A stretch of DNA of 64,000 nucleotides from a virus (lineage: Duplodnaviria; Heunggongvirae; Uroviricota; Caudoviricetes), in the IMG/VR virus record IMGVR_UViG_2778260992_000001. One strand, 5' to 3'. The notes beneath the pieces were generated by a model that saw only the letters and a program-made list of their open reading frames with translations, ran no database searches and was not told where the DNA came from. This document shows positions 2,614 through 50,145 of this stretch, one piece after another (positions within the stretch are counted from its first letter, which is position 1; each line of letters opens with the position of its first letter). A program made the translations under genes and the position numbers.

Positions 2614-3207
2614 ATGATTGCAGCCGAAAAAATCAAACAGCGAAAGCGCGACAACTCTCTTCGTGACCTCTGGAGAACACCTGATTGGCTGTTTTCTGCC
2701 ATTCAACGTTATCTTGGGGTGACATTTGATGTTGACGTTGCCTGCAACAAGGACAATGCAAAGCTGCCTAATTTCATAGGCGTTGAGCGTGATGCTTTGA
2801 AATCTGAATGGGGACAGCCAGGTACAATTGCCTTCCTCAATCCACCCTACTCCAAAATCTCCCCCTGGATTGATGCTGCTATACGTGAGCAGGCTCGCGG
2901 AGTTACAACAGTGATGCTAATTCCTCAATCCCTCGATACAAAGTGGTATGAGCGTGCAACAGAGTATGCGAATGAGACGATTATTCTGTCTGGTGGCCGC
3001 GTAGCGTTTGTCGAGCCTGACGTCAATTTGGGTCAGGTAGAAGTAAACATCAACCCCGGTGGCAGTATGCTCGTTGTTTTTCGAGGATTCTGTCAGGACG
3101 CTGGGCACTCTATAAGCAAGATCCCTTTGGACGTAATGAAAAGTCTGGGAGGGTATGATCCTGCGAATGTGGTCAGGAAAAAAAGACCATCAAAGAAGGC
3201 TGCTTAG
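2614..3207 (+). CDS. phage-type DNA N6-adenine methyltransferase (Dam family)
   Basis: translation contains WRTPDWLF, FDVDVAC, FLNPPYS motifs typical of small phage Dam MTases; ATG 2614 preferred over upstream TTG 2602. Confidence 0.7.
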   Translation: MIAAEKIKQRKRDNSLRDLWRTPDWLFSAIQRYLGVTFDVDVACNKDNAKLPNFIGVERDALKSEWGQPGTIAFLNPPYSKISPWIDAAIREQARGVTTVMLIPQSLDTKWYERATEYANETIILSGGRVAFVEPDVNLGQVEVNINPGGSMLVVFRGFCQDAGHSISKIPLDVMKSLGGYDPANVVRKKRPSKKAA

Positions 3208-3392
3208 TTTGTTCTGGCGAGTGTAATTAACCTGCTTCTGTATATAAATAACTACATATTAATTATTAATATACGGAAGCAGGCTGTTTTGTATCAGAGA
3301 CTCCCAGACCTGAACACCACTACAGAATCCACTAGAACCCCTTCTCAGACGCTTTAAAATCGATTTTATGAACCACTTTAAGGAAAACTAAC

Positions 3393-3623
3393 ATGTCATA
3401 CCCGACCAATGTTGTTGCGCTCGTAGAGAGCGATTTTCTGGCTAAGGCTCGTGAAATGATGAAAGATCGCGAGCAGGCTTTCAACTTGTACGAATGGGCA
3501 ATTAAGTGCTTGCATCTTGGGGAGCATCGCGAACTTGTTGAACAGCTTTTAGGTGAGTTGATCAACGAGGTGTTTGCCTTGAATGTTCAACTACATGGTC
3601 GAGAAAATAACCAATCGAAATGA
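3393..3623 (+). CDS. hypothetical small protein
   Basis: 76-aa ORF with RBS aaggaaa upstream. Confidence 0.4.
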   Translation: MSYPTNVVALVESDFLAKAREMMKDREQAFNLYEWAIKCLHLGEHRELVEQLLGELINEVFALNVQLHGRENNQSK

Positions 3624-4120
3624 TAGATAAGTACAAACTATTCATAAGATGGATTGTAAGTGCTAAGATCTGATAGTTTCCAGTCGTAGACTGGAGACTC
3701 GACCTGATGGGTGGGGGTAAGCGTCACTGGCGTCAGGTTTAAAAAAGCTCACTACCAGCGTAGAACCGGTGCCGTTTAGGTGTCGGGGAAGGGGGAACCA
3801 AAGTGAGCGGAGACAAGGGTCACTTTATGATTGTCGAGTCTGGGATGTTTCGAGAGGTTGAATCCAGTACTCCCCTTCATAAAGTGTGGGAAGATCTCGG
3901 TTCTGGGGTGCTGTCATCCATAACTTCCCAAGTCTAAGCTGGCAGTAGACTTAGACCATAGCTTTTCAGGTTATGAAACGACCAGGTTGGTGAGGAATTT
4001 TATACTCACCTCCCTGGGAGAGTATTACCTGAAAAGACAACCTCTCACTTCGTTCGAGGTGAACTTCACTCACTTCGTTCGTTCAGTTCAGGTTTATAAA
4101 AACCTGTACTGGGAAGTAAT
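3624..4120. other. ~500-bp ORF-free region; candidate structured non-coding RNA or regulatory region
   Basis: no ORF of 60 aa or more on any frame; several G-rich tracts and short direct repeats (cacttcgttcg x2). Confidence 0.3.
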
Positions 4121-4204
4121 TTGTTTATTTTAATAATTATTACACGCACGCGTGTGCGCACGCGCGAGGAAAAAATCGGCGCGGCGCTTGATTCAGGAGT
4201 TTAT

Positions 4205-4795
4205 ATGACGTCGAAGACACCAGCCCGGTCGCAAGCAAAAACTCGCAAAAAAGACAAAAACAAAAATTCTCCCCGCACCAATCCCACAACGCCTGTCGTA
4301 GAGTTCAATCCCCAGCTTAAAACCGTGAAAATCTTCAGTGATGGCTCTTGCCTTAAAAATCCGGGTGGCCCGGGCGGTTACGGTATAGTTCTCCAGTATC
4401 GTGGTGAGGAACGCGAGTTCTCAGATGGTTTTCATAGCACCACCAATAACCGCATGGAGATGATGGGGGCACTTATCGGGCTGGAGCGTTTGAAATATCC
4501 ATGCAACGTTATTTTGCACTCTGATAGCCAGTATCTGAAAAACGGCATGACACAGTGGATGAAATGGTGGAAACGCAATGGATGGATGACTTCTGACAAA
4601 AAACCGGTAAAGAATGTTGATCTGTGGAAGCGTCTGGATGAGGCCGCAAGTCGACATAATGTTCGCTGGAAGTGGGTTAAAGGTCACGCCGGGCATCGTG
4701 AAAATGAAATATGTGATCGACTCGCGAAGATCGCAGCTTTTTCCGCAGCAGATATGCCTCACAAGAAAGATATTGGTTTTGTTTATAACAAGTAG
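4205..4795 (+). CDS. rnhA: ribonuclease HI with basic N-terminal extension
   Basis: translation matches RNase HI along its length ([51 protein letters not shown]); RBS caggag before ATG 4205. Confidence 0.8.
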
Positions 4796-6155: not shown

Positions 6156-6313
6156 TGCTTGAGAGATTCCGGCTTGTGATCGTCATTGCTCTTCTGGTGA
6201 TGGCGGTGTTGGTGGATTTTACGGGAAAGATGATGTCTGTCATTTCTGATGGCGTCCTCATTGGTTTGGCGATCTACTTCGCTTATCCGTTAGTTCGTAA
6301 AGCAAAGTGCTAA
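6155..6313 (+). CDS. hypothetical small hydrophobic protein
   Basis: 52-aa ORF overlapping upstream stop (TAATG), largely hydrophobic; below the 60-aa track cutoff. Confidence 0.3.
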   Translation: MLERFRLVIVIALLVMAVLVDFTGKMMSVISDGVLIGLAIYFAYPLVRKAKC

Positions 6314-8079: not shown

Positions 8080-9765
8080 ATGAATACAGCCCTTTCCATC
8101 ATCGACGATGCCAACTCAAACACTGCTATCGATTATCGTCAGGAAATGAACGTCATCCACGAAATTGTGGCCGAGTGCGAGAAGGAGATCGCCTTCATGT
8201 ATCAGGTTCACGACTTCGTTTATGGAGACGAACGCCACAACATGATTAATCGCCTGCTGCAACTGAACCACCGACCAGATGAAGAACGCTCACGTTTGAA
8301 TCGAGCTTGGCTGGATAAAGTCGATCTGGAATGGGTGAAACAGAATATTTGGGCCGAGTACTGGAGGAAGGTCACGGATATGACTAACGTTCTGCTGATC
8401 ATGCCAGCTTCCCGTCGCGACGAGTGGCGTGAGCAGTTTATCGAGGGTAAGCAGGAAGTCATCAAAACTGACAGAACCGGCTATCAGATGAAGGTAAAAG
8501 AGTTCGTTGGTGTACCGGAGTTCAAAGCAGAAACGGTCATACCCACGATGCTTAATTTGCTGAATGACAGGCACAAATATCTCTCTGAGCGCGTGTATGG
8601 CTTGTTTAAGGCGCTGAGTCCTGCGCACAAGACAAATAAGACAAACGGTTTCAGCGAACGTCTGATAATCGCTGACTGCATTTCTGATTTCTGGCGGGAC
8701 AGCGTTAGCGTGAACTATCGCAAAGAGGACTACATCGACGATCTGCGTGTCTTGCTTCATTTCTTCGCGCACAAAGAATTTATTACCATCAACCGCACTG
8801 CTGAGGTGCTATCAGCTGCGTATAGGGCAAACGACTGCCAGACCGGTGACTGGATGAACGTCGATGGAAATCTGATGCGCGTGAAGATGTTCAAGAACGG
8901 CAACGTTCACTTTGAAATACATCCTGACGTGGCCTGGAAGTTGAATGAGGTGCTGGCTTACAGTATGCCTGCTGCAATCCCCGCGCCATGCCGAACTGCG
9001 CCAAAAACACGGGCACCAAAGCAGTTCGGTTTAATCCAGAAGACGATCTCCGTGCCGGTTCGCACTGCGCTTCGTGACGGGCGATTGAGCAAAGACAAAG
9101 GCGTATGGTACTTCTCTGATTCAGCTCTCCAGAAGTCGCAGGTGGAAGAGCTTGAGCGCACACTGAGCTTCATTGGCGGCGTGCAGGAGAAAAAGCACTG
9201 GCAGTTCCCGTATGAGATCGGCCATACGCTAAATACGATTGTGGCTACCGGATTAATACCGGATACAAAATCACACCAGTTCTACCCTACCCCACGCTTG
9301 ATTGCTGAGTACGTTGCCAGAGCCACTGAATTGAAGCCTGGTGAGAAGCTGCTGGAGCCTCAAGCCGGACGTGGGGATCTTCTGGCCTATATTAACGCCG
9401 ATCTGGAAGATGTTACCTGCATAGAAATCGCACCTCTCTTCGCTGATATCCTGCGTGGAAAAGGGTATACGAACACGATTTGCTGCGACTTCATAAAGTG
9501 GTCTGAGGACAACGCAGGTTATCAGTTCGACAAAATCGTTATGAACCCGCCGTACTCGCTTGGTCGTCATAGAGAGCACACGATGGCTGCGCTGGGGCAT
9601 CTGAAAGTCGGCGGGCGTCTTGTAGCAGTATTGCCGGGCACTGCGCCAATACTGGACTGGATGACGATGGATAATTACGTTTATGCCAGAGGGAAGTCGT
9701 TTACCAACGAGTTTGAAGATACCGGGATCACAGTCAGCGTATACGTTTTCAAACGCGTTAAATGA
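8080..9765 (+). CDS. putative DNA N6-adenine methyltransferase with large N-terminal domain of unknown function
   Basis: C-terminal region has SAM-binding-like EPQAGRGDL and catalytic NPPY (MNPPYS); N-terminal ~380 aa unassigned; perfect hairpin immediately upstream of ATG. Confidence 0.65.
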   Translation: MNTALSIIDDANSNTAIDYRQEMNVIHEIVAECEKEIAFMYQVHDFVYGDERHNMINRLLQLNHRPDEERSRLNRAWLDKVDLEWVKQNIWAEYWRKVTDMTNVLLIMPASRRDEWREQFIEGKQEVIKTDRTGYQMKVKEFVGVPEFKAETVIPTMLNLLNDRHKYLSERVYGLFKALSPAHKTNKTNGFSERLIIADCISDFWRDSVSVNYRKEDYIDDLRVLLHFFAHKEFITINRTAEVLSAAYRANDCQTGDWMNVDGNLMRVKMFKNGNVHFEIHPDVAWKLNEVLAYSMPAAIPAPCRTAPKTRAPKQFGLIQKTISVPVRTALRDGRLSKDKGVWYFSDSALQKSQVEELERTLSFIGGVQEKKHWQFPYEIGHTLNTIVATGLIPDTKSHQFYPTPRLIAEYVARATELKPGEKLLEPQAGRGDLLAYINADLEDVTCIEIAPLFADILRGKGYTNTICCDFIKWSEDNAGYQFDKIVMNPPYSLGRHREHTMAALGHLKVGGRLVAVLPGTAPILDWMTMDNYVYARGKSFTNEFEDTGITVSVYVFKRVK

Positions 9766-9766
9766 T

Positions 9767-9785
9767 AGGTAAATACTTACTTAAT
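9767..9785. promoter_or_regulatory. palindromic site, class 2 (TAGGTAAGTA..TACTTACCTA)
   Basis: taggtaaatacttacttaa between 8080..9765 and 9827..10531. Confidence 0.45.
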
Positions 9786-9826
9786 TTGTGTAAGAATGTA
9801 GTAACTAAACGAGAAGAGAAAAACAC

Positions 9827-10531
9827 ATGAGCAACCTCCAGTTAGAGCATTTTAACGTCACAGGCCGTTCTGATTTTCCTTTCAAGTTTACATTGAAAGG
9901 TTATGCAGAGGATGCGGTAGGCCAGATCATTATTGATAAAGGCATCGTTAAGTTTGAGGGGGATTTTGATGAATCCGCGAAAACATTCATAGACTTCGTT
10001 GCCAAACGTTGGAGCGAGCAATGGAAAAACCTGGAAAAGCGCGCCAATGAGTTTGATCGGTTCATGGATGCAATGGATACAGCAAAAGAGGCTCTTGATG
10101 CCGGGACTCCGTTAGATCTGGAGTCACTTTTCAACGGCGAAGTGGCCTCTGCGATGTTTGCCACCATGTTCGCGGGTGAGTTCGTCCGCAGCGGTGCCAA
10201 AAACTACCTTGAGCTGGATTACAACGTCCCTGCAATTGGCGATTTCGTCGTTACCATCCAACGCAAAGAAGGTAAGACGCCAGGTGAACGCGTCGCAGAG
10301 CTTGAGGCCGTTGTGGATCAGCGTAACGGAGAGTGTGACCGTTTGATCAACGAGCTTCATGCACTTCGGGAAGAAAGAATATGTGCGGGTAGCAAGACAC
10401 GTAATGCAGCGGATATCTACTTCCAGTTAGTTGAGGAATGCCAGATTCCACCAGGTGGCTCTCTTGTCGATTACGTCAGACATTTAATGGCGGAAGTTAA
10501 CTCCAGCCATAAAGATGGTGAGGTGCGCTGA
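9827..10531 (+). CDS. hypothetical protein
   Basis: 234-aa ORF, RBS gagaag. Confidence 0.5.
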   Translation: MSNLQLEHFNVTGRSDFPFKFTLKGYAEDAVGQIIIDKGIVKFEGDFDESAKTFIDFVAKRWSEQWKNLEKRANEFDRFMDAMDTAKEALDAGTPLDLESLFNGEVASAMFATMFAGEFVRSGAKNYLELDYNVPAIGDFVVTIQRKEGKTPGERVAELEAVVDQRNGECDRLINELHALREERICAGSKTRNAADIYFQLVEECQIPPGGSLVDYVRHLMAEVNSSHKDGEVR

Positions 10532-10911
10532 TGTTTGGCATTGACGCACAGCGTATAGCCGCTTTTGCAAAAAGCCCTCTTGATAATCCCTTGTCTCGTA
10601 GTGAGCAAATGGAGCTGGCAAGGCTTTTTCTTCACATTCAAAAACAGGCAGACATTTTCAATAACATGCCTAATCAACCTATTCTGGATGGTCACATCCA
10701 GATGGTCATTAACAGTCATGAGAAAGGCTGGGCTGCAATCGTCCCCTGCACAATTACATACAAGTTGGCGAAAGAGGTTCAAGAGTTTCGAAAAGCCAGT
10801 GTCGAATCGGAGTCTACCAAAGCCGCAATAAACACTCTTATTCGCATGGGGTTCACATGGACCGGTGGAGCCTACTGGCAAGCACCTCACCCCATTTTAT
10901 CCGGCAATTAG
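10531..10911 (+). CDS. hypothetical protein
   Basis: 126-aa ORF overlapping upstream stop (ATGA coupling). Confidence 0.45.
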   Translation: MFGIDAQRIAAFAKSPLDNPLSRSEQMELARLFLHIQKQADIFNNMPNQPILDGHIQMVINSHEKGWAAIVPCTITYKLAKEVQEFRKASVESESTKAAINTLIRMGFTWTGGAYWQAPHPILSGN

Positions 10912-10941
10912 ACGCTACAAATCCTTCGGCATGAATAAATA

Positions 10942-10962
10942 AAGGCCATAAGTTGTGGCCTT
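10942..10962 (+). terminator. terminator-like hairpin
   Basis: aaggccataagttgtggcctt followed by A/T-rich run. Confidence 0.45.
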
Positions 10963-11030
10963 AAATAAATTGTTTTCTACATTTTCTTATTTGTGAAAAT
11001 AACCACAACTAGAAAACAACGGAGTTAAGA

Positions 11031-11672
11031 ATGTCTAGTATTTCCGAAGCTCATATGTTCGCCGCTGGCGCTCATGGTGGCGTTGGTCAGAAAAGAAAAT
11101 ATACCGGCGAAGACTACATCAACCACCCGGTTGCTGTCCGAGAGATTGTTGCATTGCATGACGGAACCGTGGAGATGCAAATCGCGGCGCTTCTGCATGA
11201 TGTGGTCGAAGACACCCATGTAACCATAGAGATGGTTCGTGATCACTTCGGTGAGCGCGTAGCTGAAATGGTTCAGGCTCTGACCAACATTGCAAGGCCA
11301 GAAGACGGCAATCGAATACAGCGTTTCATCATCAATGTCCGGGAGCTGGAGCAAAATCTCGACATGCAGACGCGCATGATCAAGCTGGCTGACCTGCTCG
11401 ACAATACCTCTTCTATCGTGAGTCGCGATCCCGAGTTTTCAGCTGTCTACCTCGCAGAGAAAGAACTGATGCTGGACGTACTCTTTCACGGCAAAGAGAT
11501 TGGTGCCAATGCTGATGTTGTCGAGTACATGGAGAGGATAGGTATAGAACACCCGTTGCTATTAAGCGCAATGGCGAAAGTCACTGAAGGTATTGCGCTT
11601 CTGAAACCGGTACACATCAAACGTTATGAAAAACACAAATCGCTGATCTGGAGCGCGTGGGAGGCTGCATGA
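11031..11672 (+). CDS. HD-domain phosphohydrolase, RelA/SpoT-type (putative small alarmone (p)ppGpp hydrolase)
   Basis: HD signature LLHDVVEDT plus upstream H..H metal-binding context; 213 aa, no synthetase domain. Confidence 0.6.
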   Translation: MSSISEAHMFAAGAHGGVGQKRKYTGEDYINHPVAVREIVALHDGTVEMQIAALLHDVVEDTHVTIEMVRDHFGERVAEMVQALTNIARPEDGNRIQRFIINVRELEQNLDMQTRMIKLADLLDNTSSIVSRDPEFSAVYLAEKELMLDVLFHGKEIGANADVVEYMERIGIEHPLLLSAMAKVTEGIALLKPVHIKRYEKHKSLIWSAWEAA

Positions 11673-12211
11673 AGGTCGAAAAAATAGATGTTCTTTCCTT
11701 TGTGCTGACGGATCTGGAACGCCTCGATCCGGTTCGAGTGATGATTGAAAACTACGAACCTGGTAAGGGAAGAATCACCATCACCTGCTACGGAAAAGCG
11801 TGGACTGCGGCTTGGTTTGCTATGGGCGGTGATGATGTGCAGACGTTCATTAAGCGAGTTAGCAACGATTATCTAATCGACAATTTCGACCCTCAACTGC
11901 TAAGCACGGTCGACGATGACAACGATGCAAATCTGCTTTTCGTAAAGTCAGAAATCATAAAGTTACGAAGAGAGAGAGAAATAGACGCCGTACTGGCTCG
12001 CGAAATGTGGGACGAGGCGGAAAACGCCGATGACGTAAAAGAAAGCTGCTGTTGTTTCGGCGTCGGTAACAAACTGCTGAATCTCTTTGGTGATGATCCG
12101 TGGTATGCCGACTGGCCAACGGTACCAAACCCGAAATACCAGTATCTGGAACGCATTGTGAACGCGGTACGTGAAGGGCTGAAAGAGTTAGATAAGTTAG
12201 AGGCATCGTAA
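11669..12211 (+). CDS. hypothetical protein
   Basis: ATGA overlap with upstream gene, RBS ggaggctg. Confidence 0.5.
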   Translation: MKVEKIDVLSFVLTDLERLDPVRVMIENYEPGKGRITITCYGKAWTAAWFAMGGDDVQTFIKRVSNDYLIDNFDPQLLSTVDDDNDANLLFVKSEIIKLRREREIDAVLAREMWDEAENADDVKESCCCFGVGNKLLNLFGDDPWYADWPTVPNPKYQYLERIVNAVREGLKELDKLEAS

Positions 12212-12624
12212 TGAGAGAGAAAATCAAGAACCCGGTCGTCGTATTGTATAAACGGGAAACCAGCGATTCTTATGCGGTATCCATCACTGATGGAAGCCAG
12301 AACATGCACGATGGTCTGCTAATGGCCTCCGTATCTCCTGATGATTCTGACTACCCTTTCGCCACTTTCGCTATGGTTGGTTACTACATGGCTGCCGAAA
12401 TTGAGAAGTTGCGTGTTGAGCTGGAGACCGTTAAACAGCGGGAAAAGGATCTGTTTATGGAAAATGTTCGACTTAAGTCAGGTATAGCAGGTCTGATACA
12501 CCTCGGTATTCGATATGCGGATGTCGAAGTCATGAAAATAGCTGGAGATGCCCAGCTTTCTACTCCCTGTACTGACAGCATCATAAACAGTATTGCATCA
12601 GGCGTTTTCACCAAAGAGGGTTAG
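12211..12624 (+). CDS. hypothetical protein
   Basis: 137-aa ORF, translationally coupled. Confidence 0.45.
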   Translation: MREKIKNPVVVLYKRETSDSYAVSITDGSQNMHDGLLMASVSPDDSDYPFATFAMVGYYMAAEIEKLRVELETVKQREKDLFMENVRLKSGIAGLIHLGIRYADVEVMKIAGDAQLSTPCTDSIINSIASGVFTKEG

Positions 12625-12625
12625 C

Positions 12626-12814
12626 ATGATGAGAACAGTAGAAGTTCGCGCTGAAGATGTAATCCCAGGTGATGTGGTCATAACATCTAAAGGCAAACGA
12701 TGTGCGGTTAAATCTTTCTGGATGGAAGGTGACAAAGTGACTCTGTTCGGTACGGATGGTTCCGAAACGGATTATGACTACGACGAATTGCTTGTTGTTG
12801 AGAGAGCTGCCTAA
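12626..12814 (+). CDS. hypothetical small protein
   Basis: 62-aa ORF in operon context. Confidence 0.35.
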   Translation: MMRTVEVRAEDVIPGDVVITSKGKRCAVKSFWMEGDKVTLFGTDGSETDYDYDELLVVERAA

Positions 12815-13518
12815 TGACCACCTTTACCAAAGAACAGTTAATCTCCCATGCACGCGAAAGCGTTAGTTATCTGGAAAACTTGAAAGGACGTGTTAGCAAA
12901 GAAGGTGCGGACTGCAAAGTTGTTCTTGAGATGGTTGAACGAGATCTAGAACTGGCACGAATTGCACTGGCCTCGCTTGAGGCAAAACCAATAGGTGCAT
13001 TCCACATTGCAGAACAGCAAGTTGACGGCACAAGTGACTACCTCAAGGATGGAGAATGGCCTATTGATAATGGAATTATTGAGGTCTACGCCGCCCCACC
13101 CATTCCAGTAGTACCTGAAGAAAAACCAATGCCTAACCCTCTTAAAATGTACGCGGTCGATGCTGTTGCCGCTATTGCAGAGGTGAGAGGCTGGAACGCC
13201 TGTCGTGCCGCCATGCTTCAGAGTCAAGATAGTGGCATTAAGGATAGCTGGATAAGCTGTAGTGAGCGAATGCCTGTAATCGGCGAGCTAAATTGGAGAA
13301 CTGGTTTTCCTTTGCTGATTACGTGTGAGATCGGCGTTATACCAGCTTATTACGGCTTTGTGAGCGTTAATGGGGGTAAGCATTATGGTTTTATGGAAAG
13401 TTTTAAATACGGAGACGATCGCGGCGGCCATCCTCAAACTAATGAATATGGACTGATTAGCAACGTAACCCATTGGATGCCGCTACCAGAACCTCCGCAG
13501 GAGTCGCAGAGTGAATAA
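12814..13518 (+). CDS. hypothetical protein
   Basis: 234-aa ORF, ATGA-coupled. Confidence 0.5.
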   Translation: MTTFTKEQLISHARESVSYLENLKGRVSKEGADCKVVLEMVERDLELARIALASLEAKPIGAFHIAEQQVDGTSDYLKDGEWPIDNGIIEVYAAPPIPVVPEEKPMPNPLKMYAVDAVAAIAEVRGWNACRAAMLQSQDSGIKDSWISCSERMPVIGELNWRTGFPLLITCEIGVIPAYYGFVSVNGGKHYGFMESFKYGDDRGGHPQTNEYGLISNVTHWMPLPEPPQESQSE

Positions 13519-15521: not shown

Positions 15522-15911
15522 ATGGGCTTCCCTTCTCCTGCGGCGGATTATGCTGAGAGCCGTATTTCTCTTGATCAGCAGATAATTAGACATCCTTCAG
15601 CGACCTACTTCATGAGGGCAGCTGATAGTCATCATCGTGAGGGAATATTACAGGGTGCATTGCTGGTGGTCGATTCCTCACTTACCCCGGTTGATGGTTC
15701 TCTGCTTGTATGCGCTCTGGATGGGGAATATCGCGTAAAAAGATACCGGAAGTATCCACGTCAGCATCTGGAGGATTTAAGAACCGGTAAGAAGGAAGCA
15801 TTGCCAAAGGATGACGATGGATGCACGGGCAGCAATGCCGTGTTTGGTGTGATCACTCACATTATCAACGACGCAAGAAGTGGCGAGTTTGATGATTGTC
15901 CCGTGATGTAG
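15522..15911 (+). CDS. UmuD'-like (HumD-like) S24 peptidase-fold protein, pre-processed form
   Basis: begins MGFPSPAADY, i.e. at the position equivalent to the UmuD Cys-Gly cleavage site; contains conserved Ser (ADSHH) and a candidate Lys (RVKRYRK); no umuC downstream. Confidence 0.65.
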   Translation: MGFPSPAADYAESRISLDQQIIRHPSATYFMRAADSHHREGILQGALLVVDSSLTPVDGSLLVCALDGEYRVKRYRKYPRQHLEDLRTGKKEALPKDDDGCTGSNAVFGVITHIINDARSGEFDDCPVM

Positions 15912-15922
15912 GAGAACTGATT

Positions 15923-15948
15923 AGGCGGTGCAATGCACCGCCTTTTTA
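15923..15948. terminator. bidirectional terminator between UmuD'-like gene and apbC
   Basis: aggcggtgcaatgcaccgcct followed by ttttt. Confidence 0.5.
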
Positions 15949-17206: not shown

Positions 17207-19240
17207 ATGACCCAAGTCGCGAAGAAAATTCTGGTGACGTGCGCGCTGCCGTACGCTAACGGCTCAATCCACCTCGGCCATATGCTGGAGCACATCCAGG
17301 CTGATGTCTGGGTTCGTTACCAGCGAATGCGCGGCCACGAGGTTAATTTCATCTGTGCCGACGATGCCCACGGTACGCCGATCATGCTGAAAGCACAGCA
17401 GCTTGGTATCACACCGGAACAGATGATTGGCGAAATGAGTCAGGAACACCAGACTGATTTTGCAGGCTTTAACATCAGCTATGACAACTATCACTCGACG
17501 CACAGCGAAGAGAACCGTCAGTTGTCCGAGCTTATCTATACTCGCCTGAAAGAGAACGGTTTTATTAAAAACCGCACCATCTCTCAGCTGTACGATCCGG
17601 AAAAAGGCATGTTCCTGCCGGACCGTTTTGTGAAAGGCACCTGCCCGAAATGTAAAGCACCGGATCAATACGGCGATAACTGTGAAGTCTGCGGCGCTAC
17701 TTACAGCCCGACTGAACTGATCGAGCCGAAATCGGTAGTTTCTGGTGCTACGCCGGTAATGCGTGATTCCGAACACTTCTTCTTTGATCTGCCTTCTTTC
17801 AGCGAAATGTTGCAGGCATGGACCCGCAGCGGTGCGTTGCAGGAGCAGGTGGCAAACAAAATGCAGGAGTGGTTTGAATCTGGCCTGCAACAGTGGGATA
17901 TCTCCCGCGATGCGCCGTACTTCGGTTTTGAAATTCCGAACGCACCGGGCAAATATTTCTACGTCTGGCTGGACGCGCCGATTGGCTACATGGGTTCCTT
18001 CAAGAATCTGTGCGACAAACGCGGCGACACTACCAGCTTCGACGAATACTGGAAGAAAGACTCCACCGCCGAGCTGTACCACTTCATCGGTAAAGATATC
18101 GTTTACTTCCACAGCCTGTTCTGGCCTGCCATGCTGGAAGGCAGCAATTTCCGCAAGCCGACCAACCTGTTTGTTCATGGCTATGTGACGGTGAACGGTG
18201 CGAAGATGTCCAAGTCTCGCGGCACCTTTATTAAAGCCAGCACCTGGCTGAATCATTTTGACGCTGACAGCCTGCGTTACTACTACACTGCGAAACTCTC
18301 TTCGCGCATTGATGATATCGATCTCAACCTGGAGGATTTCGTTCAGCGCGTGAATGCCGATATCGTGAACAAAGTGGTTAACCTGGCCTCCCGTAATGCA
18401 GGCTTTATCAACAAGCGTTTTGACGGCGTGCTGGCAAGCGAACTGGCTGACCCGCAACTGTACAAAACCTTTACTGATGCTGCTGAAGTGATTGGTGAAG
18501 CATGGGAAAGCCGCGAATTTGGTAAAGCGATTCGTGAAATCATGGCGCTGGCTGATCTGGCTAACCGCTATGTCGATGAACAGGCTCCGTGGGTGGTGGC
18601 GAAGCAGGAAGGGCGCGATGCCGATCTGCAGGCGATTTGCTCTATGGGCATTAACCTGTTCCGCGTGCTGATGACGTACCTGAAACCGGTACTGCCGAAA
18701 CTGACTGAACGTGCAGAAGCATTCCTGAATACAGAACTGACCTGGGATGGTATCCAGCAACCGCTGCTGGGCCATAAAGTGAATCCGTTCAAGGCACTGT
18801 ATAACCGCATCGACATGAAGCAGGTTGAAGCACTGGTGGAAGCATCCAAAGAGGAAGTAAAAGCCGCTGCCGCGCCAGTAACTGGCCCACTGGCAGATGA
18901 TCCGATTCAGGAAACCATCACCTTTGACGACTTCGCCAAAGTTGACCTGCGCGTGGCTCTGATTGAAAACGCGGAGTTTGTCGAAGGTTCTGACAAACTG
19001 CTTCGCCTGACGCTGGATCTCGGTGGCGAAAAACGTAATGTCTTCTCCGGCATTCGTTCCGCTTATCCAGATCCACAGGCACTGATTGGTCGTCACACCA
19101 TTATGGTGGCCAACCTGGCTCCGCGTAAAATGCGCTTCGGTATCTCCGAAGGCATGGTGATGGCTGCTGGCCCCGGCGGGAAAGATATCTTCCTGTTAAG
19201 CCCGGATGCTGGTGCTAAACCAGGCCACCAGGTTAAGTAA
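17207..19240 (+). CDS. metG: methionyl-tRNA synthetase
   Basis: translation from [29 protein letters not shown] (HIGH) through KMSKS and C-terminal tRNA-binding domain; appears near-identical to E. coli MetG as recalled; divergent from apbC as in the host chromosome. Confidence 0.95.
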
Positions 19241-44414: not shown

Positions 44415-47400
44415 ATGTCACAAAACGTAGAGTTTATCCTGTCGCTGGAAGACAAACAGTTTACAGCGTCAATCGATCGTGCGGGGAAACTGCTTACTCG
44501 ATTTGGTGAGCAGGTAACAAAGCCTGCTCAAAAAATCCAAACCTTTGAACGCTCTTTGGGTTCGGTCGCCCGTATCATTGGCGTTCTGGAAAGCAAGCTC
44601 GATTCTACGGCAGATAAACTACAGGATGTAGCTGCCGGTTTTGAGCTTGCTTCAGATGCTACGCGTAAAATGCGTGGCAACATCACCAGCCTCAATTCTG
44701 GTCTTAAAGCCCTGATTGAGCGCGTCGATACGACAACTTCTTCAGTAGATAAACTCACCGCGTCATTACGTAAAGTGCAATCAGAGCTAAATGATTTCTC
44801 TGATTGGGCGACCTATGCAAGCAAAAGCGCAAGCCGCTTTGGTACTGAGGTCAAAGAAGCCTCTGCGTCCGTGAGTGGCATGAATACGCGCCTTAATACC
44901 ACGACGAAGCGACTCAGTAATTGGGGTGTCACAACGAGTCAGGCTGCCGAGGGACTGAAAAAGGTTCGTGAGCAGATGGACGAAGTTATTGGACGTCAGC
45001 AACTGATTAGCAAGCCGGTACGCGTTCGTACATCTGGAAGTGGCGATGGTGGTAGCGGGCAGCGTAGCGGCGCTTCTGGTCACAGCGGTAAAAATAACGA
45101 AGGAGGTATGTTCTCTGGCCTTCGTGGCAACATTTTCCTGCTTGGCGAGATCGGAGATGCTGCCAGAACGGTTACTGACATCATGTTTGGGTGGCAGAAG
45201 CCTATTGTTGAAGCTGCGGCCGAAATGGAACGTATGCGGGTGATGCTTCGAGGGTTGAATAAGGAGAAGTCCAACCCTGGCCAGGCTGCCGCTGATGATA
45301 TGAAGTACATCGTAGACATGGCTCAAAATGCGCCGTTCGCGATGCAGGCGTTAACAGATTCCTTCGTGAAGTTTCGTTCTGCTGGCTTAGATCCAACCGA
45401 TGGTTCTCTGAAGGCGCTGGTGGACTCCGTTGCTCGTTTTGGTGGTGATAGTGAGCTGTTGAAACGTGCGGCTGTGGCCGTTCAGCAGATGTCCGGTAAG
45501 GGCGTCGTGTCAATGGAAGAGCTACGTCAGCAATTAGGTGAAGCCGTTCCTAACGCGATGCAGGCAATGGCAGACGCCGCAGGCATCACTATGGGGGAAC
45601 TGACTAAAGCCGTTGCCAGCGGTACGGTTGAGGCAAAGCAGGCGTTGTCTCTGATGTTTGTTGGTCTGCGTGCGGAGAACGAGAACGCAGCGAAAGACAT
45701 GATGCAAACCTACACAGGTGCGCTGGCGCAACTTCAGACGTCATTCACGTTATTTGCTGATCGAGTTGGTCAGGCTGGATATCTGGATTCTCTATCAAAG
45801 GGGATGAAAGAACTGGCTTCAATCATGAATAGCGCCGAAGGGATTTCGTTTGCCAATTCTTTAGGTTCGGGGTTAACGACGGCAATCGATGGGTTGCGTC
45901 AGCTTGCTCAATGGTTAGCAAAGAACCAAGAGCTGGTAATTAATCTCGGTAAGGTCGTGGCCGCGATGGTTGCGTTCAAACTGATGCGAGCAGGGATCAT
46001 GGGAGTAGTTGGCGCAGGCAGCCAGATGGTTAGCACCTTTGCCACGATGGCGACCGCCATACAGACTCCATTTAACCTCGGCGCTACAGCAGTAACTCGA
46101 TTCAATCGTGCGGCACGTATGGGGTTGGCTCCGATCCCCTCTCTTATTTTCGCCATTCGTGGGGCGATTACGGGGCTTAAAGGTGCTTTTGCAGGATTAA
46201 CGGCGTTCATTGCAGCAAACCCTATAGGGGCAGCATTTACAGTTGCCACTGTAGCTGTTGCTGGCCTAATCACGTACATGACCATGCTCCGCAGCGAAAC
46301 TTCAAAGGTCGTTGACGAGATTAGGAAAATACCAGAAGCGATGACAGCGGCCAAACGTGCACAAATGGCCGACCGCGCAGAAAAGCTCGAAAAGCAGATT
46401 CTTGCTGATCAACGAGCATTAAAAACTGGTGAGGGTGTTAATTACGTATCTAACTCTGCCGGTGTTATTACTCACAAAGAGTCGAAGGCTGACATTGAAG
46501 CACGCCTGAAAAAAAATCAGGAAGAGTATCAAAAGATAACCGGCACGATAGCTCTTGGTGACGGCGCTGTAGCAAAGCGTTTGGCTAAAGAGGCTGCCGA
46601 ATCTCAGATTGAGAAAATTCGAGCGGAAAACCAGATTTTCGCGGCAACATTCGTGAAAGCCCGGCAGGAGGCTCTGGAGAAGATCCAGAAAATCAATGAT
46701 GACAGTTCACTTTCAGATGATGAAAAGAACAAGCTATTGGCACCGTTACGTGAAACGGTAAACAAAAGCTATCTGGAGCCTGCGCAAAAACTGGTTGATT
46801 CACTTTCTTCTCGTAAGAATGCGACCGAGAAGCAAATCGCGACTCTTAATGATCAGCTTGAAAAAGCCAAAAAGGATGGAAATACCGAGCAGATCCAGAA
46901 ACTTCAAGGCAGTATTCGTGGTTATCAGGAGCATTTGGAAACCGTTGCTCAGGAACTGACTCAGGCAGAGTTCGAGAGAGATAACGCGGCCAAAACTGGT
47001 AAGGGCGTGATGTCAAACCAGGGGACTGTTCTTGGGTTAGGTACAACTGATAAAGCTGCTCAGAAGGCGCTGGCGCAATATATGCGAAACCAGATGGATT
47101 CTGCGACTTATCAGCGTACTTTGCCTGACGGCACTCCGATGATGGACTTCGAAGGTAAGCCTATTATTGGGCCTAAACAACTCAAGACGCAGCTTAATTT
47201 GCAGAAAGCATCCAGTGCCAGCTCTCTGGAGAAAATGAGCGATGAAGAGCGTGCCGCAGCCATTGCTGCACTGACTAAAGCTCGTGAACAGGATGCCGCA
47301 GCTGCCGAGAAAGCCGCCCAACGATCAGCTAACGCCTCGCAGCGTGCGGCCAAGAAGGAGCAGGCAGCGCAACAGAAACTGGCAGCCGGATACCAGAAGG

Positions 47401-48986
47401 CTCTGGATAAAGCCGATCAGCTTATGGGGCAAATGGGTGAAAGCTCTAAGGCTACGGTATCGTTTGATCAGTCTCTTCGCGATACAACGAAATCGCTGAC
47501 AGATTTGGCTAATGCGGTTCCTAACGAGTTCATCACTCAAGAGATGATCGACAAGGCGAAAAAACGTCTTGAAGACCTCAAAAATGCGACACCTGAATAT
47601 CGCGAGATGTTTAATCGCCGCAATGTTGAGCAGATGATCTCCACTTGGGCACCGGAGGCGGATTCCATTATTAGTGCTGGCTATACGCCGTCTCGCGAAG
47701 AGAAAGTTGCTGATTTCGAAGACACCTACAACCGCAATCTCAAAGCGTTGATAGAACTTCGTGATAAGGCGTCTGATCCTAAAGTTGTGGCGCTTTATAC
47801 AAAGAAAATCAATCAACTGATTGCTGCTGGCAATACCGCGCTTATTAAAGAGACGGGGACTGCGACGCAGAAGTTGGCACTGGAATACGAAAACTTGGCA
47901 GAGCAGATCGAAAGCACCTGGACTGATTTGTTTAGTGGCTTAACTGATGTCCTGACTGATTTCGTTATTAACGGGAAGATGAGCTTCTCCAGCCTATCTC
48001 AGTCCATTTTGAAAGATATCACCAATATGGTCGTGAAGTCGCAAATCACGCTGCCTCTAATGAACATGTTGGGGATGGGAACCACCGCAGCTGGTAGTTC
48101 ACAGAGTGGCAATTTGCTCACTGGAGTTGCTTCTGCCGTTGCCAATCAAGGTGTACGAATGGGCAACACTGTTAATGGCGACAAGTCGGTAGGAGAAGCC
48201 ACGAAGGAGACGTCCAGTTCGGTAACTGGATTGGGGCAAACAACACAGCAGACCACCAGCGCAATTGGCACAGCAACAAATGCGATTGGTAGCTGGGTAT
48301 CGGGGCTATTTGATAGCACCGAAGCCAAAGATGCTGAGACAAAAGCAGTGAAGGACTCCATCTTCTCGATGCAGAACCTCAGCTCTGTTACCGGCGCTCT
48401 GTCTGCCGCGTTTGCAATGCTTGGAGCTAATGCTTCCGGCTCTGGTAATAAGTGGTTGAATTTCGGCGCGACAGTTGCATCTGGTTTGGTTTCAGTATGG
48501 GCTGGTGGTGGATTTGATGGATTGATGTCCGGTTCTTCTGGCTCAACTTCCGGGTTCAACAATCTGACCAGTTCTGCTGCCGATGGCACGAATGGTATTC
48601 CTGCAATTCCGAAGTTTGCAAATGGTGGCATATTCGGAAAAGACGGCGTGATCCCGCTCCGGGCATACCAGAAAGGCGGTATCGCCAACTCACCTCAATT
48701 GGCGTTGTTTGGGGAAGGCGATATGAATGAGGCGTATGTTCCATTGCCTGATGGTCGAACAATCCCTGTAACGCTCAGTACCGATGGTATGAGTGGAGGA
48801 GGAAATGTTCTTTCTCCGGTATCAATTGAGATCAACGTCCATAGTGACGGTAGCACAACTGAATCCGGCGATACAGAAAGCATATGGAACAATGCCGCTC
48901 AACGGATGAAAGCAATCGCGCTTGAGACTATCGCTCAAGAGAAACGCCCTGGCGGATCACTCAACCCAAACACTCAACGTAACTAA
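44415..48986 (+). CDS. tail tape measure protein
   Basis: ~1520 aa, coiled-coil-rich with Gly-rich hydrophobic segment; ATG 44415 preferred over TTG 44394. Confidence 0.85.
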   Translation: MSQNVEFILSLEDKQFTASIDRAGKLLTRFGEQVTKPAQKIQTFERSLGSVARIIGVLESKLDSTADKLQDVAAGFELASDATRKMRGNITSLNSGLKALIERVDTTTSSVDKLTASLRKVQSELNDFSDWATYASKSASRFGTEVKEASASVSGMNTRLNTTTKRLSNWGVTTSQAAEGLKKVREQMDEVIGRQQLISKPVRVRTSGSGDGGSGQRSGASGHSGKNNEGGMFSGLRGNIFLLGEIGDAARTVTDIMFGWQKPIVEAAAEMERMRVMLRGLNKEKSNPGQAAADDMKYIVDMAQNAPFAMQALTDSFVKFRSAGLDPTDGSLKALVDSVARFGGDSELLKRAAVAVQQMSGKGVVSMEELRQQLGEAVPNAMQAMADAAGITMGELTKAVASGTVEAKQALSLMFVGLRAENENAAKDMMQTYTGALAQLQTSFTLFADRVGQAGYLDSLSKGMKELASIMNSAEGISFANSLGSGLTTAIDGLRQLAQWLAKNQELVINLGKVVAAMVAFKLMRAGIMGVVGAGSQMVSTFATMATAIQTPFNLGATAVTRFNRAARMGLAPIPSLIFAIRGAITGLKGAFAGLTAFIAANPIGAAFTVATVAVAGLITYMTMLRSETSKVVDEIRKIPEAMTAAKRAQMADRAEKLEKQILADQRALKTGEGVNYVSNSAGVITHKESKADIEARLKKNQEEYQKITGTIALGDGAVAKRLAKEAAESQIEKIRAENQIFAATFVKARQEALEKIQKINDDSSLSDDEKNKLLAPLRETVNKSYLEPAQKLVDSLSSRKNATEKQIATLNDQLEKAKKDGNTEQIQKLQGSIRGYQEHLETVAQELTQAEFERDNAAKTGKGVMSNQGTVLGLGTTDKAAQKALAQYMRNQMDSATYQRTLPDGTPMMDFEGKPIIGPKQLKTQLNLQKASSASSLEKMSDEERAAAIAALTKAREQDAAAAEKAAQRSANASQRAAKKEQAAQQKLAAGYQKALDKADQLMGQMGESSKATVSFDQSLRDTTKSLTDLANAVPNEFITQEMIDKAKKRLEDLKNATPEYREMFNRRNVEQMISTWAPEADSIISAGYTPSREEKVADFEDTYNRNLKALIELRDKASDPKVVALYTKKINQLIAAGNTALIKETGTATQKLALEYENLAEQIESTWTDLFSGLTDVLTDFVINGKMSFSSLSQSILKDITNMVVKSQITLPLMNMLGMGTTAAGSSQSGNLLTGVASAVANQGVRMGNTVNGDKSVGEATKETSSSVTGLGQTTQQTTSAIGTATNAIGSWVSGLFDSTEAKDAETKAVKDSIFSMQNLSSVTGALSAAFAMLGANASGSGNKWLNFGATVASGLVSVWAGGGFDGLMSGSSGSTSGFNNLTSSAADGTNGIPAIPKFANGGIFGKDGVIPLRAYQKGGIANSPQLALFGEGDMNEAYVPLPDGRTIPVTLSTDGMSGGGNVLSPVSIEINVHSDGSTTESGDTESIWNNAAQRMKAIALETIAQEKRPGGSLNPNTQRN

Positions 48987-49028
48987 CTATCGACTGCCCC
49001 GACGGGGGCAGTCTCACAAGGATGTGAG

Positions 49029-49364
49029 ATGGAAAGACAAACGTTTAATTGGTATCCAGATTACGAATCTGAAAAAAGCGTAAAACCGAATGTAACGGTA
49101 CTTAATTTTGGTGATGACTACGAGCAGCGACAGGCTCAAGGTCTTAATCGTATTAAAGAAGAATGGTCGTTAACCTTTACAAGATCATACAACGAAATTA
49201 ATGCAATCGATGACTTCCTGACTGAGCGATCAGGCGTTGAATCGTTCTATTGGGTTAATCCAAGAGGCAAGCAGATTGTAGTTGTATGTGACAGTCATAC
49301 GGTCAAGCGATATCAGGGGTACTGTGTCTTAACTGCTACATTCAGACAAGTATTTGAGGCTTAA
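49029..49364 (+). CDS. minor tail protein (lambda M-like)
   Basis: 111 aa immediately after tape measure, before L/K/I/J homologues. Confidence 0.65.
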   Translation: MERQTFNWYPDYESEKSVKPNVTVLNFGDDYEQRQAQGLNRIKEEWSLTFTRSYNEINAIDDFLTERSGVESFYWVNPRGKQIVVVCDSHTVKRYQGYCVLTATFRQVFEA

Positions 49365-49446
49365 GTATCTGGATAAGTAAGTACTAATTTACTATCATTG
49401 TGGCGCTGACAGGATGTTAGCGCCTACTTATTTCAAGGATGAAACA

Positions 49447-50145
49447 ATGGGAATTAAAGCTGATATTCAGAGCTTATCTCCCTCTGCACTCATTGAGTTG
49501 TTCGTACTGGATATGTCGAACACAACTTCAGGGGGGAAGCTATTCTTCCACGCCGGAACAAACGAACTGATGCAACCGGTCGTCTGGCAAGGAGTGACAT
49601 ACGAGCCGTGGCCAATCAAAGCATCAGGTTTTGACAAAACGGGCCAGGGAACGTTGCCACGTCCAAAAATTCAGGTATCGAACTTTGCCGGAACCGTCTC
49701 TGCGGAAGTTCAGGCGAACGACGATCTTGTTGGCTGCCGCATTATTCGCAAGATGACGCTGGCTCGCTTCCTCGATGCCGTTAATTTTAAAGACGGCAAC
49801 CCAACAGCAGATCCAAACCAACATTTCCCGGATGAAATGTGGTTTATCGAACAGAAAACTCTCGAAACTCATCAGGTTGTCGAGTTTGAATTGTCCAGTG
49901 TGTTCGATTTGATGGGGGTGCAACTGCCGTATCGTCAGATCATTAAAAACACCTGCCCGTGGAAATACCGAGGGCCAGAATGCGGCTATACCGGTCCATA
50001 TTTCGACAAAAATAACCAGCAGACGTCTATGTCTGGTGCTGATTACTGCACAAAACGTTATGACGCCTGTAATGCGCGTCGGAATTATTTTGCCAACGGA
50101 GTGATCCATTTTGGCGGGTTTATTGGAGCTACGCGATATGGGTAA
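49447..50145 (+). CDS. minor tail protein L
   Basis: clear similarity to lambda gpL as recalled (WQGVTYEPWPIKASGFD, ARFLDAVNF, C-terminal Cys cluster). Confidence 0.85.
   Translation: MGIKADIQSLSPSALIELFVLDMSNTTSGGKLFFHAGTNELMQPVVWQGVTYEPWPIKASGFDKTGQGTLPRPKIQVSNFAGTVSAEVQANDDLVGCRIIRKMTLARFLDAVNFKDGNPTADPNQHFPDEMWFIEQKTLETHQVVEFELSSVFDLMGVQLPYRQIIKNTCPWKYRGPECGYTGPYFDKNNQQTSMSGADYCTKRYDACNARRNYFANGVIHFGGFIGATRYG

Follow-up and report, generated by a model that had tools for sequence, protein, structure and literature searches.

Introduction

The small alarmone hydrolase (SAH) of Salmonella phage SSU5 was classed as PaSpo by Jimmy et al. 2020 (PMC7229694) and neutralizes all five of five validated toxSAS, namely CapRel, PhRel, PhRel2, FaRel, and FaRel2 (PMC7229694, Table 1). 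These data stem from toxicity-neutralization assays with co- or over-expression in E. coli rather than from infections with the phage or from the plasmid in its native state. PaSpo(SSU5) has since become a standard reagent in later work, where it detoxifies CapRel(SJ46), PhRel2, and FaRel2 for expression and purification. As for other SAHs, MESH1 and ATfaRel restore the in vitro aminoacylation of tRNA that was pyrophosphorylated at its 3'-CCA (Kurata et al.), and some SAHs serve as antitoxins that adjoin a toxSAS (PMC7229694). A counter-defence role of SAHs in phages has been put forward before, in the Discussion of Jimmy et al. 2020 (PMC7229694). Our literature search returned no report of a phage-encoded SAH that rescues a phage from toxSAS defence in infection, and no study of ppGpp biology in SSU5 phage-plasmids or of a phage-encoded SAH in its native phage-plasmid state.

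Here, we analyzed a gene for a predicted SAH in a 64,000-nucleotide stretch of DNA from a tailed virus (Caudoviricetes; hereafter "the window"). The gene had been picked out in an earlier note, which was made from the DNA letters and which had proposed a stand-alone hydrolase that might blunt the stringent response or alarmone-based immunity.

Results

The hydrolase gene is real and under purifying selection

The hydrolase ORF encodes 213 amino acids between an ATG at 11031 and a stop codon at 11670-11672 on the plus strand, and the sequence LLHDVVEDT occupies residues 54-62 of the product. RefSeq contains the same CDS as an 'HD domain-containing protein' (WP_021533175.1). Its stop codon and the start codon of the ORF that follows are interlocked in an ATGA at 11669-11672 (Table 1). 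Profile matches, 1549 homologs in a large protein collection, and dN/dS ratios together identify the ORF as a genuine gene rather than a chance frame. The dN/dS amounted to 0.20 between the window gene and its SSU5 ortholog, and to 0.03 (window gene) and 0.05 (SSU5) when compared with a Klebsiella ortholog; purifying selection on the hydrolase is thus strong where the gene is present. The antisense ORFs within the gene lacked support, and a search of positions 10000-13000 against Rfam retrieved no family on either strand.

Table 1. Positions of the features discussed in the text, in window coordinates
Feature	Coordinates	Strand	Basis or remark
Small alarmone hydrolase CDS (SAH, PaSpo-type; RefSeq WP_021533175.1)	11031..11672	+	ORF, HMM, homologs, structure model
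Shine-Dalgarno GGAG	11021..11024	+	6 nt 5' of hydrolase ATG; sequence read directly
Variable two-gene cassette (hydrolase + partner ORF)	11006..12210	+	local blastn vs Cyrano
Conserved intergenic element 5' of hydrolase	10932..11005 (similarity to 11019)	+	sequence comparison with SSU5, Cyrano
Hairpin AAGGCCA-taagttg-TGGCCTT in intergenic element	10942..10962		weakly terminator-like
Partner ORF, 180 aa (PF26211; PGAP 'phiTE_072 family protein')	11669..12211	+	translationally coupled, ATGA overlap
DUF4942 methyltransferase gene, 561 aa	8080..9765	+	PADLOC mad2 and type II MTase matches
Ea22-like ORF	9827..10531	+	matches N-terminal part of phrog_3451
S24 (LexA/UmuD-like) peptidase gene	15522..15911		end of rightward array
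Strong intrinsic terminator	15923..15943		follows the S24 peptidase gene
Methionyl-tRNA synthetase gene	17207..19240		plasmid-borne
rnhA (frameshifted pseudogene)	4150..4795		RefSeq; converted from pG749_2
Tape-measure gene (frameshifted pseudogene)	45086..49643		RefSeq; converted from pG749_2

The protein is a single-domain RSH hydrolase with an intact active site

Two Pfam families, HD_4 and HD, were the only ones to match the protein above their gathering cut-offs; the HD_4 match (PF13328) spans residues 8-135 and scores 67.8 bits (gathering cut-off 27.2, E=1.2e-18). The RelA/SpoT model TIGR00691 is matched with E=1.4e-24, yet the score of 86 bits stays below the cut-off of 499 and the match covers no more than positions 1-123 of the 687-position model. 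The protein furthermore matches phrog_990, 'metal-dependent phosphohydrolase' (E=2.9e-55). Neither a synthetase nor a TGS or ACT domain was detected by the Pfam and TIGR00691 profiles. The translation and these searches hence bear out the earlier description of a 213-aa protein that has LLHDVVEDT and is devoid of a synthetase domain.

Comparisons with solved structures pointed in the same direction. Sequence matches in the PDB consisted exclusively of RSH hydrolase domains (SpoT, Rel of several species, MESH1, and bacterial SAHs including a (p)ppApp hydrolase), with SpoT (7qps, E=1.7e-13) and M. tuberculosis Rel (5xnx) at the top. An AlphaFold2 model computed from a 55-sequence alignment (pLDDT 97.1, pTM 0.92) adopts the all-helical fold of the RSH hydrolase type. 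When it was searched against the PDB with Foldseek, all 41 of 41 matches at E<=0.001 were hydrolase domains of MESH1, SAHs, or Rel/SpoT, and the best superposition was obtained with human MESH1 (3nr1; TM 0.82, target-normalized; rmsd 2.4 Å). Not a single dNTPase appeared among the significant profile matches, the PDB sequence matches, or the 41 fold matches, nor did any other non-RSH HD protein among the latter two. Consequently, the profile search that the earlier note had suggested assigns the protein to the RSH hydrolases and not to an HD subfamily of the dNTPase type, and the proposed RelA/SpoT-type HD hydrolase is upheld by the HD_4 match, the N-terminal part of TIGR00691, the fold matches, and the intact motifs described below.

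Following published definitions of the motifs HD1-HD6, i.e. Arg, His, His-Asp, Glu-Asp, Asp plus Arg/Lys, and Asn, respectively (PMC9293644), we located the catalytic residues R22 (HD1), H32 (HD2), H56-D57 (HD3), E60-D61 (HD4), D121-L122 (HD5), and N125 (HD6). Across 55 homologs, R22, H32, H56, E60, D61, D121, and N125 do not vary, and D57 is conserved in at least 90%. More remote homologs in the large protein collection (45-55% identity) align to no more than ∼70% of the query. The one departure concerns the second residue of HD5, Leu122, where Arg or Lys is usual. Such a D:hydrophobic variant of HD5 has been documented, with its effect on activity left open in that source (PMC9293644). The surrounding HD5-HD6 stretch, LADLLDN, is identical in the window protein and in SSU5 PaSpo, which works in vivo.

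Orthology to SSU5 PaSpo

With 186 of 213 residues identical (87%) and no gaps, the window protein aligns end to end with SSU5_099 (YP_006906731.1), and orthology is secure at this level of identity. SSU5_099 is the sole SAH homolog in the SSU5 genome, located at one place in the record. We accordingly adopted the PaSpo subfamily label from this 87% identity to SSU5's only SAH, which is the PaSpo of Jimmy et al.; as a label transferred between sequences, it makes the window protein a predicted member of the subfamily.

The gene resides in a mosaic accessory region of a phage-plasmid

Plasmid pG749_2 of E. coli G749 (NZ_CP014490.1, 109,910 bp) contains the region with 100% identity and encodes a complete siphovirus-type structural module as well as RepB, ParB-family proteins, DNA polymerase III alpha, RecA, NrdAB, MetRS, and four tRNAs. 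Besides, the replicon aligns collinearly with Salmonella phage SSU5 and the Escherichia phages Cyrano, PhiR41_1, and CMS-2020a. Because of this gene content and collinearity, we regard the window as part of an SSU5/pHCM2-type phage-plasmid. Small accessory genes, among them the DUF4942 methyltransferase gene and Ea22-like, Eaa-like, and DUF551 ORFs, form a long rightward array to which the hydrolase gene belongs. The array is closed by an S24 peptidase gene and, behind it, a strong intrinsic terminator. The full 109,910-bp plasmid carries no RelA/SpoT synthetase in its RefSeq annotation, and PADLOC returned no defence matches for the neighbours of the hydrolase gene except methyltransferase ones for the DUF4942 protein.

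Several further features of this replicon deserve mention. The DUF4942 protein combines the eponymous domain with a C-terminal SAM-dependent methyltransferase domain; no restriction partner was found nearby, and its probable role is that of an orphan, protective DNA methyltransferase. On the 3' side of the terminator lies a leftward apbC/MinD-like ATPase gene, followed by the methionyl-tRNA synthetase gene, while four tRNA genes (Ser, Thr, Tyr, Asn) are found on the plasmid outside the window; these synthetase and tRNA genes could bear on tRNA-targeting defences. RefSeq lists the tape-measure and rnhA genes as frameshifted pseudogenes and, unless the frameshifts are sequencing errors, the element may be incapable of producing infective particles. 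Just 5' of window position 1 (pG749_2 71766-73757), RefSeq annotates DfrA51, a trimethoprim-resistant dihydrofolate reductase, beside a thymidylate synthase. This is probably a phage DHFR of nucleotide metabolism that scores as a resistance gene.

Hydrolase and partner ORF form a variable cassette

Escherichia phage Cyrano is 98.3% identical to the window over positions 9001-11005 and regains homology at 12211; in between, it has 43 bp in place of the 1,205-bp cassette of hydrolase and partner ORF. SSU5, conversely, has in common with this part of the window only the stretch 10932-12185 (87% identity), comprising the intergenic element and the two genes, and its flanking genes differ. From these alignment breakpoints, we conclude that hydrolase and partner ORF move as a 1.2-kb cassette within a mosaic accessory region.

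The intergenic element itself is common to SSU5, where the flanking genes are different, and to Cyrano, which lacks the hydrolase. Its SSU5 counterparts are found at 6159-6245 and 8902-8962, part of the element having a second SSU5 copy between SSU5_103 and SSU5_104, and its 25-nt core is single-copy in the window. The element, which contains a hairpin (Table 1), may represent a module junction or a regulatory sequence. We found no convincing sigma-70 promoter 5' of the hydrolase gene.

Downstream, the translationally coupled partner ORF contains invariant Cys127/Cys128 (CCC in the window protein) and evolves under a dN/dS of ∼0.10. Its AlphaFold2 model (pLDDT 87.9) has no fold relatives in the PDB, the best match reaching E=0.26. 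The composite family phrog_3451 matches the Ea22-like ORF with its N-terminal part and the partner ORF with its C-terminal part, which suggests that fused Ea22-like/partner forms exist in other phages. The pairing with the hydrolase is kept only among the 78-87% orthologs (SSU5, K. pneumoniae TH1), and is absent at a 52%-identical hydrolase copy of K. oxytoca and in phage Bas82. PF26211 is widespread without the hydrolase in enterobacterial prophages, including Mb-size chromosomal contigs. As linkage is confined to close orthologs and PF26211 is common on its own, a functional coupling of the two genes is not supported.

The hydrolase gene is patchily distributed and repeatedly lost

Among 5,426 complete E. 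coli genomes, 36 carry a full-length hydrolase gene and 44 have any match, the full-length copies being always on plasmids of ∼103-156 kb. The adjacent DUF4942 gene, a backbone gene of this family of elements, is present in 249 E. coli genomes and at 242 E. coli plasmid places; from the counts for the two genes, the hydrolase is estimated to occur in ∼15-18% of the E. coli SSU5-like plasmids.

In addition, there are traces of decay. In eight E. coli SSU5-like plasmids, nothing is left of the hydrolase gene but its first 43 nt (corresponding to window positions 11031-11073). In one of them, pSTEC388_1 (2501-2673), an IS1 remnant adjoins the 43-nt stub and directly precedes apbC/metG, an order from which we deduce that a secondary deletion by IS1 took the hydrolase together with ∼4.9 kb of downstream accessory genes. 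Two other variants are deletion fusions: an AAA-ATPase::SAH fusion (P0010), joined at residue ∼59 and without HD1-HD3, and an Ea22-like::SAH fusion (P0012), joined at residue ∼75 and without HD1-HD4. Two more are truncated C-terminally, to 139 (P0011) and 118 aa (P0027), and a 231-aa E. coli variant of 62% identity (P0009) reads LLHGVIEDT, i.e. Gly takes the place of the metal-binding Asp in HD3.

Outside E. coli, orthologs of 78-87% identity occur on plasmids of Salmonella, Enterobacter, Citrobacter, and Klebsiella. The Salmonella plasmid records with the ortholog measure ∼106.7 kb, the size of S. Typhi pHCM2. A clade of 52-58% identity is found on Klebsiella plasmids, with the hydrolase at a different position, 5' of the DUF4942 gene. 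Strong purifying selection combined with frequent loss would befit an accessory gene that is useful only under certain conditions, e.g. one for anti-defence.

CapRel-type toxSAS occur in the same host species

The characterized CapRel(SJ46) is encoded at 2944-4065 on the minus strand of Salmonella phage SJ46. Genes resembling it are present in 98 of the 5,426 complete E. coli genomes, 14 copies being at least 99% identical and 85 ∼70% identical. Since 98 of 103 places are on plasmids, whose sizes among the matches listed range from 78 to 273 kb and are mostly 92-100 kb, as is that of the P1-like phage SJ46, CapRel defence in E. coli appears to reside largely on extrachromosomal elements of SJ46-like size. 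Plausible toxSAS targets thus exist in E. coli, the host species of the window element. Hydrolase and CapRel were never found in one strain among the matches listed (60 of the 99 CapRel-positive records), a count without statistical power given that ∼0.65 co-occurrences are expected by chance.

Discussion

Taken together, the gene very probably encodes an active small alarmone hydrolase of the PaSpo type. What speaks against activity is Leu122 of HD5 in place of the usual Arg or Lys, although SSU5 PaSpo, having the same sequence there, functions in vivo. On balance, we favour an explanation in which this active single-domain RSH hydrolase is accessory cargo of an SSU5-type phage-plasmid and acts as a broad antidote to toxSAS, even if we consider it evenly poised whether countering toxSAS is the function for which the gene was selected. 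We infer the chemistry of the window protein itself, as well as a counter-defence use during infection, by analogy with its relatives. The enzyme is probably Mn2+-dependent. Going by the family, H32, H56, D57, and D121 would hold the metal ion, E60 and D61 would activate a water molecule for attack on the 3'-pyrophosphate ester, and R22 and N125 would position the base. Its substrates would comprise (p)ppGpp, (pp)pApp, and tRNA with a pyrophosphorylated 3'-CCA. In this manner, the hydrolase could erase the products of CapRel-, PhRel-, and FaRel-type effectors that are fired upon infection by the host or by rival prophages and phage-plasmids, and, as a broad antidote, it would not have to touch the toxin protein itself. 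Removal of these products might then allow the phage-plasmid to replicate or to become established.

The suggestion of the earlier note that such an enzyme could blunt toxSAS-type immunity gains support from the co-expression assays on the 87%-identical SSU5 ortholog (PMC7229694), insofar as these carry over to the window protein. The distribution of the gene fits a conditionally useful anti-defence function as well, for its carriers are few compared with those of the backbone gene and it has been lost or has decayed repeatedly.

The same active site, being of the (p)ppGpp 3'-pyrophosphohydrolase type, could alternatively serve to manipulate the stringent response, in that the hydrolase would mainly degrade (p)ppGpp made by host RelA/SpoT and thereby sustain transcription, translation, and replication, either for lytic growth or for the plasmid in a starved cell. 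The stringent response has been reported to restrict phage infection, and phages counteract it in other ways, e.g. with a portal protein that inhibits RelA/SpoT (10.64898/2026.01.27.700999). That role would also suit this replicon, a low-copy plasmid-prophage equipped with genes for its own replication and for nucleotide metabolism. However, a benefit so general predicts a near-universal gene, yet <20% of the E. coli SSU5-like plasmids have it, and its loss has recurred. We therefore hold this explanation to be possible but rather doubtful, and the two readings are compatible, since the same chemistry serves the toxSAS antidote. Patchiness likewise tells against a host-protective trait of the plasmid state, whereby the lysogen would gain competitively by detoxifying the (pp)pApp that it receives from interbacterial toxins, be they Tas1-type T6SS effectors or alarmone synthetases that are exported. 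This scenario strikes us as quite improbable, even though SSU5 PaSpo neutralizes the (pp)pApp-producing FaRel (PMC7229694) and two reports describe SAHs as hydrolyzing (pp)pApp and as self-resistance factors against toxic alarmone synthetases (PMC9765508, PMC12691689).

The structural comparisons raise a different option, as the best matches include human MESH1 with NADPH and with PAPS bound, and the Introduction of Kurata et al. refers to MESH1 as an NADPH phosphatase. Nevertheless, the demonstrated phenotype of the SSU5 ortholog is toxSAS neutralization (PMC7229694), and R22 and N125, the base-binding residues, are conserved as in alarmone hydrolases, so we deem it very improbable that the protein is a metabolic phosphatase like MESH1, with NADPH, PAPS, or other non-alarmone compounds as substrates. 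Least credible of all to us is that the protein serves a co-encoded toxSAS as type IV antitoxin, akin to ATfaRel, or else belongs to another HD subfamily (dNTPase type). The HD superfamily is admittedly broad and some SAHs do adjoin their toxSAS as antitoxins. Yet the annotation of the identical 109,910-bp plasmid lists no RelA/SpoT synthetase, so that we reject a cis antitoxin, and PADLOC found no defence among the neighbours apart from the methyltransferase matches; as for other HD subfamilies, none of the 41 fold matches and no PDB sequence match was to a dNTPase or non-RSH HD protein. An antitoxin in one operon with a toxSAS is also contradicted by the adjacent genes, which are Ea22-like, Eaa-like, and PF26211 ORFs.

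Returning to the favoured role as a toxSAS antidote, a bolder and, in our estimation, unlikely extension would turn the cassette into a weapon in conflicts between phage-plasmids, giving entry into cells occupied by CapRel plasmids and/or resetting alarmones in the plasmid state, with the PF26211 partner as a possible second counter-defence factor. If true, SSU5-type elements would carry a mobile SAH cassette, often acquired and lost again, specifically to infect or become established in cells that are occupied by CapRel plasmids. For phage-borne SAHs against toxSAS immunity in infection, E. coli offers a convenient natural test system in the form of closely related SSU5-type phage-plasmids with the hydrolase, without it (Cyrano, PhiR41_1), with IS1-deleted stubs, or with active-site and fusion variants. 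The characterized CapRel(SJ46) defence works in E. coli too, so that a phage SAH can be pitted against toxSAS immunity in one host species.

As a discovery, the locus is of little significance, given that a close ortholog has been characterized experimentally. The enzyme family, its phage-borne subfamily, the anti-toxSAS activity of the ortholog, and the counter-defence idea have all been published (PMC7229694); the anatomy of the cassette, the frequency and decay of the locus, the lack of an annotated toxSAS on its replicon, and the mainly plasmid-borne location of CapRel-type genes in E. coli are new and modest additions of the present work.

How, then, does the window protein compare with the systems described so far? 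With the long RSH enzymes (SpoT, Rel), which provide its closest PDB sequence matches, it has the same catalytic residues in common, whereas the synthetase, TGS, and ACT domains of these enzymes are all missing from it. MESH1 (human/Drosophila) and the bacterial SAHs (RelH of C. glutamicum and L. levettii, P. aeruginosa SAH, and C. marina ATfaRel) resemble it in their single-domain RSH fold and in HD1-HD6, yet are only 21-28% identical to it and have D:Lys/Arg instead of D:Leu in HD5. Of these, MESH1 and ATfaRel take the 3'-pyrophosphate off tRNA that a toxSAS has modified. Compared with MESH1, the window protein is extended by ∼30-35 C-terminal residues (helices 175-189 and 193-212 in the model), and, unlike ATfaRel, it is not encoded beside a toxSAS. 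SSU5 PaSpo differs from the window protein by 27 substitutions, which are concentrated in the latter's C-terminal helices (residues 150-213), and in the flanks of the cassette, made up of SSU5_098 and an LprI-family protein in SSU5 but of an Eaa-like and an Eae-like ORF in the window. The hosts are Salmonella and E. coli, respectively, and toxin neutralization is known for the SSU5 allele. In all other respects considered, the two systems are alike: both proteins comprise 213 aa and have the same catalytic motifs, both genes are preceded by the same intergenic element and followed by the same ATGA-coupled partner ORF, and both replicons are phage-plasmids of the SSU5/pHCM2 type.
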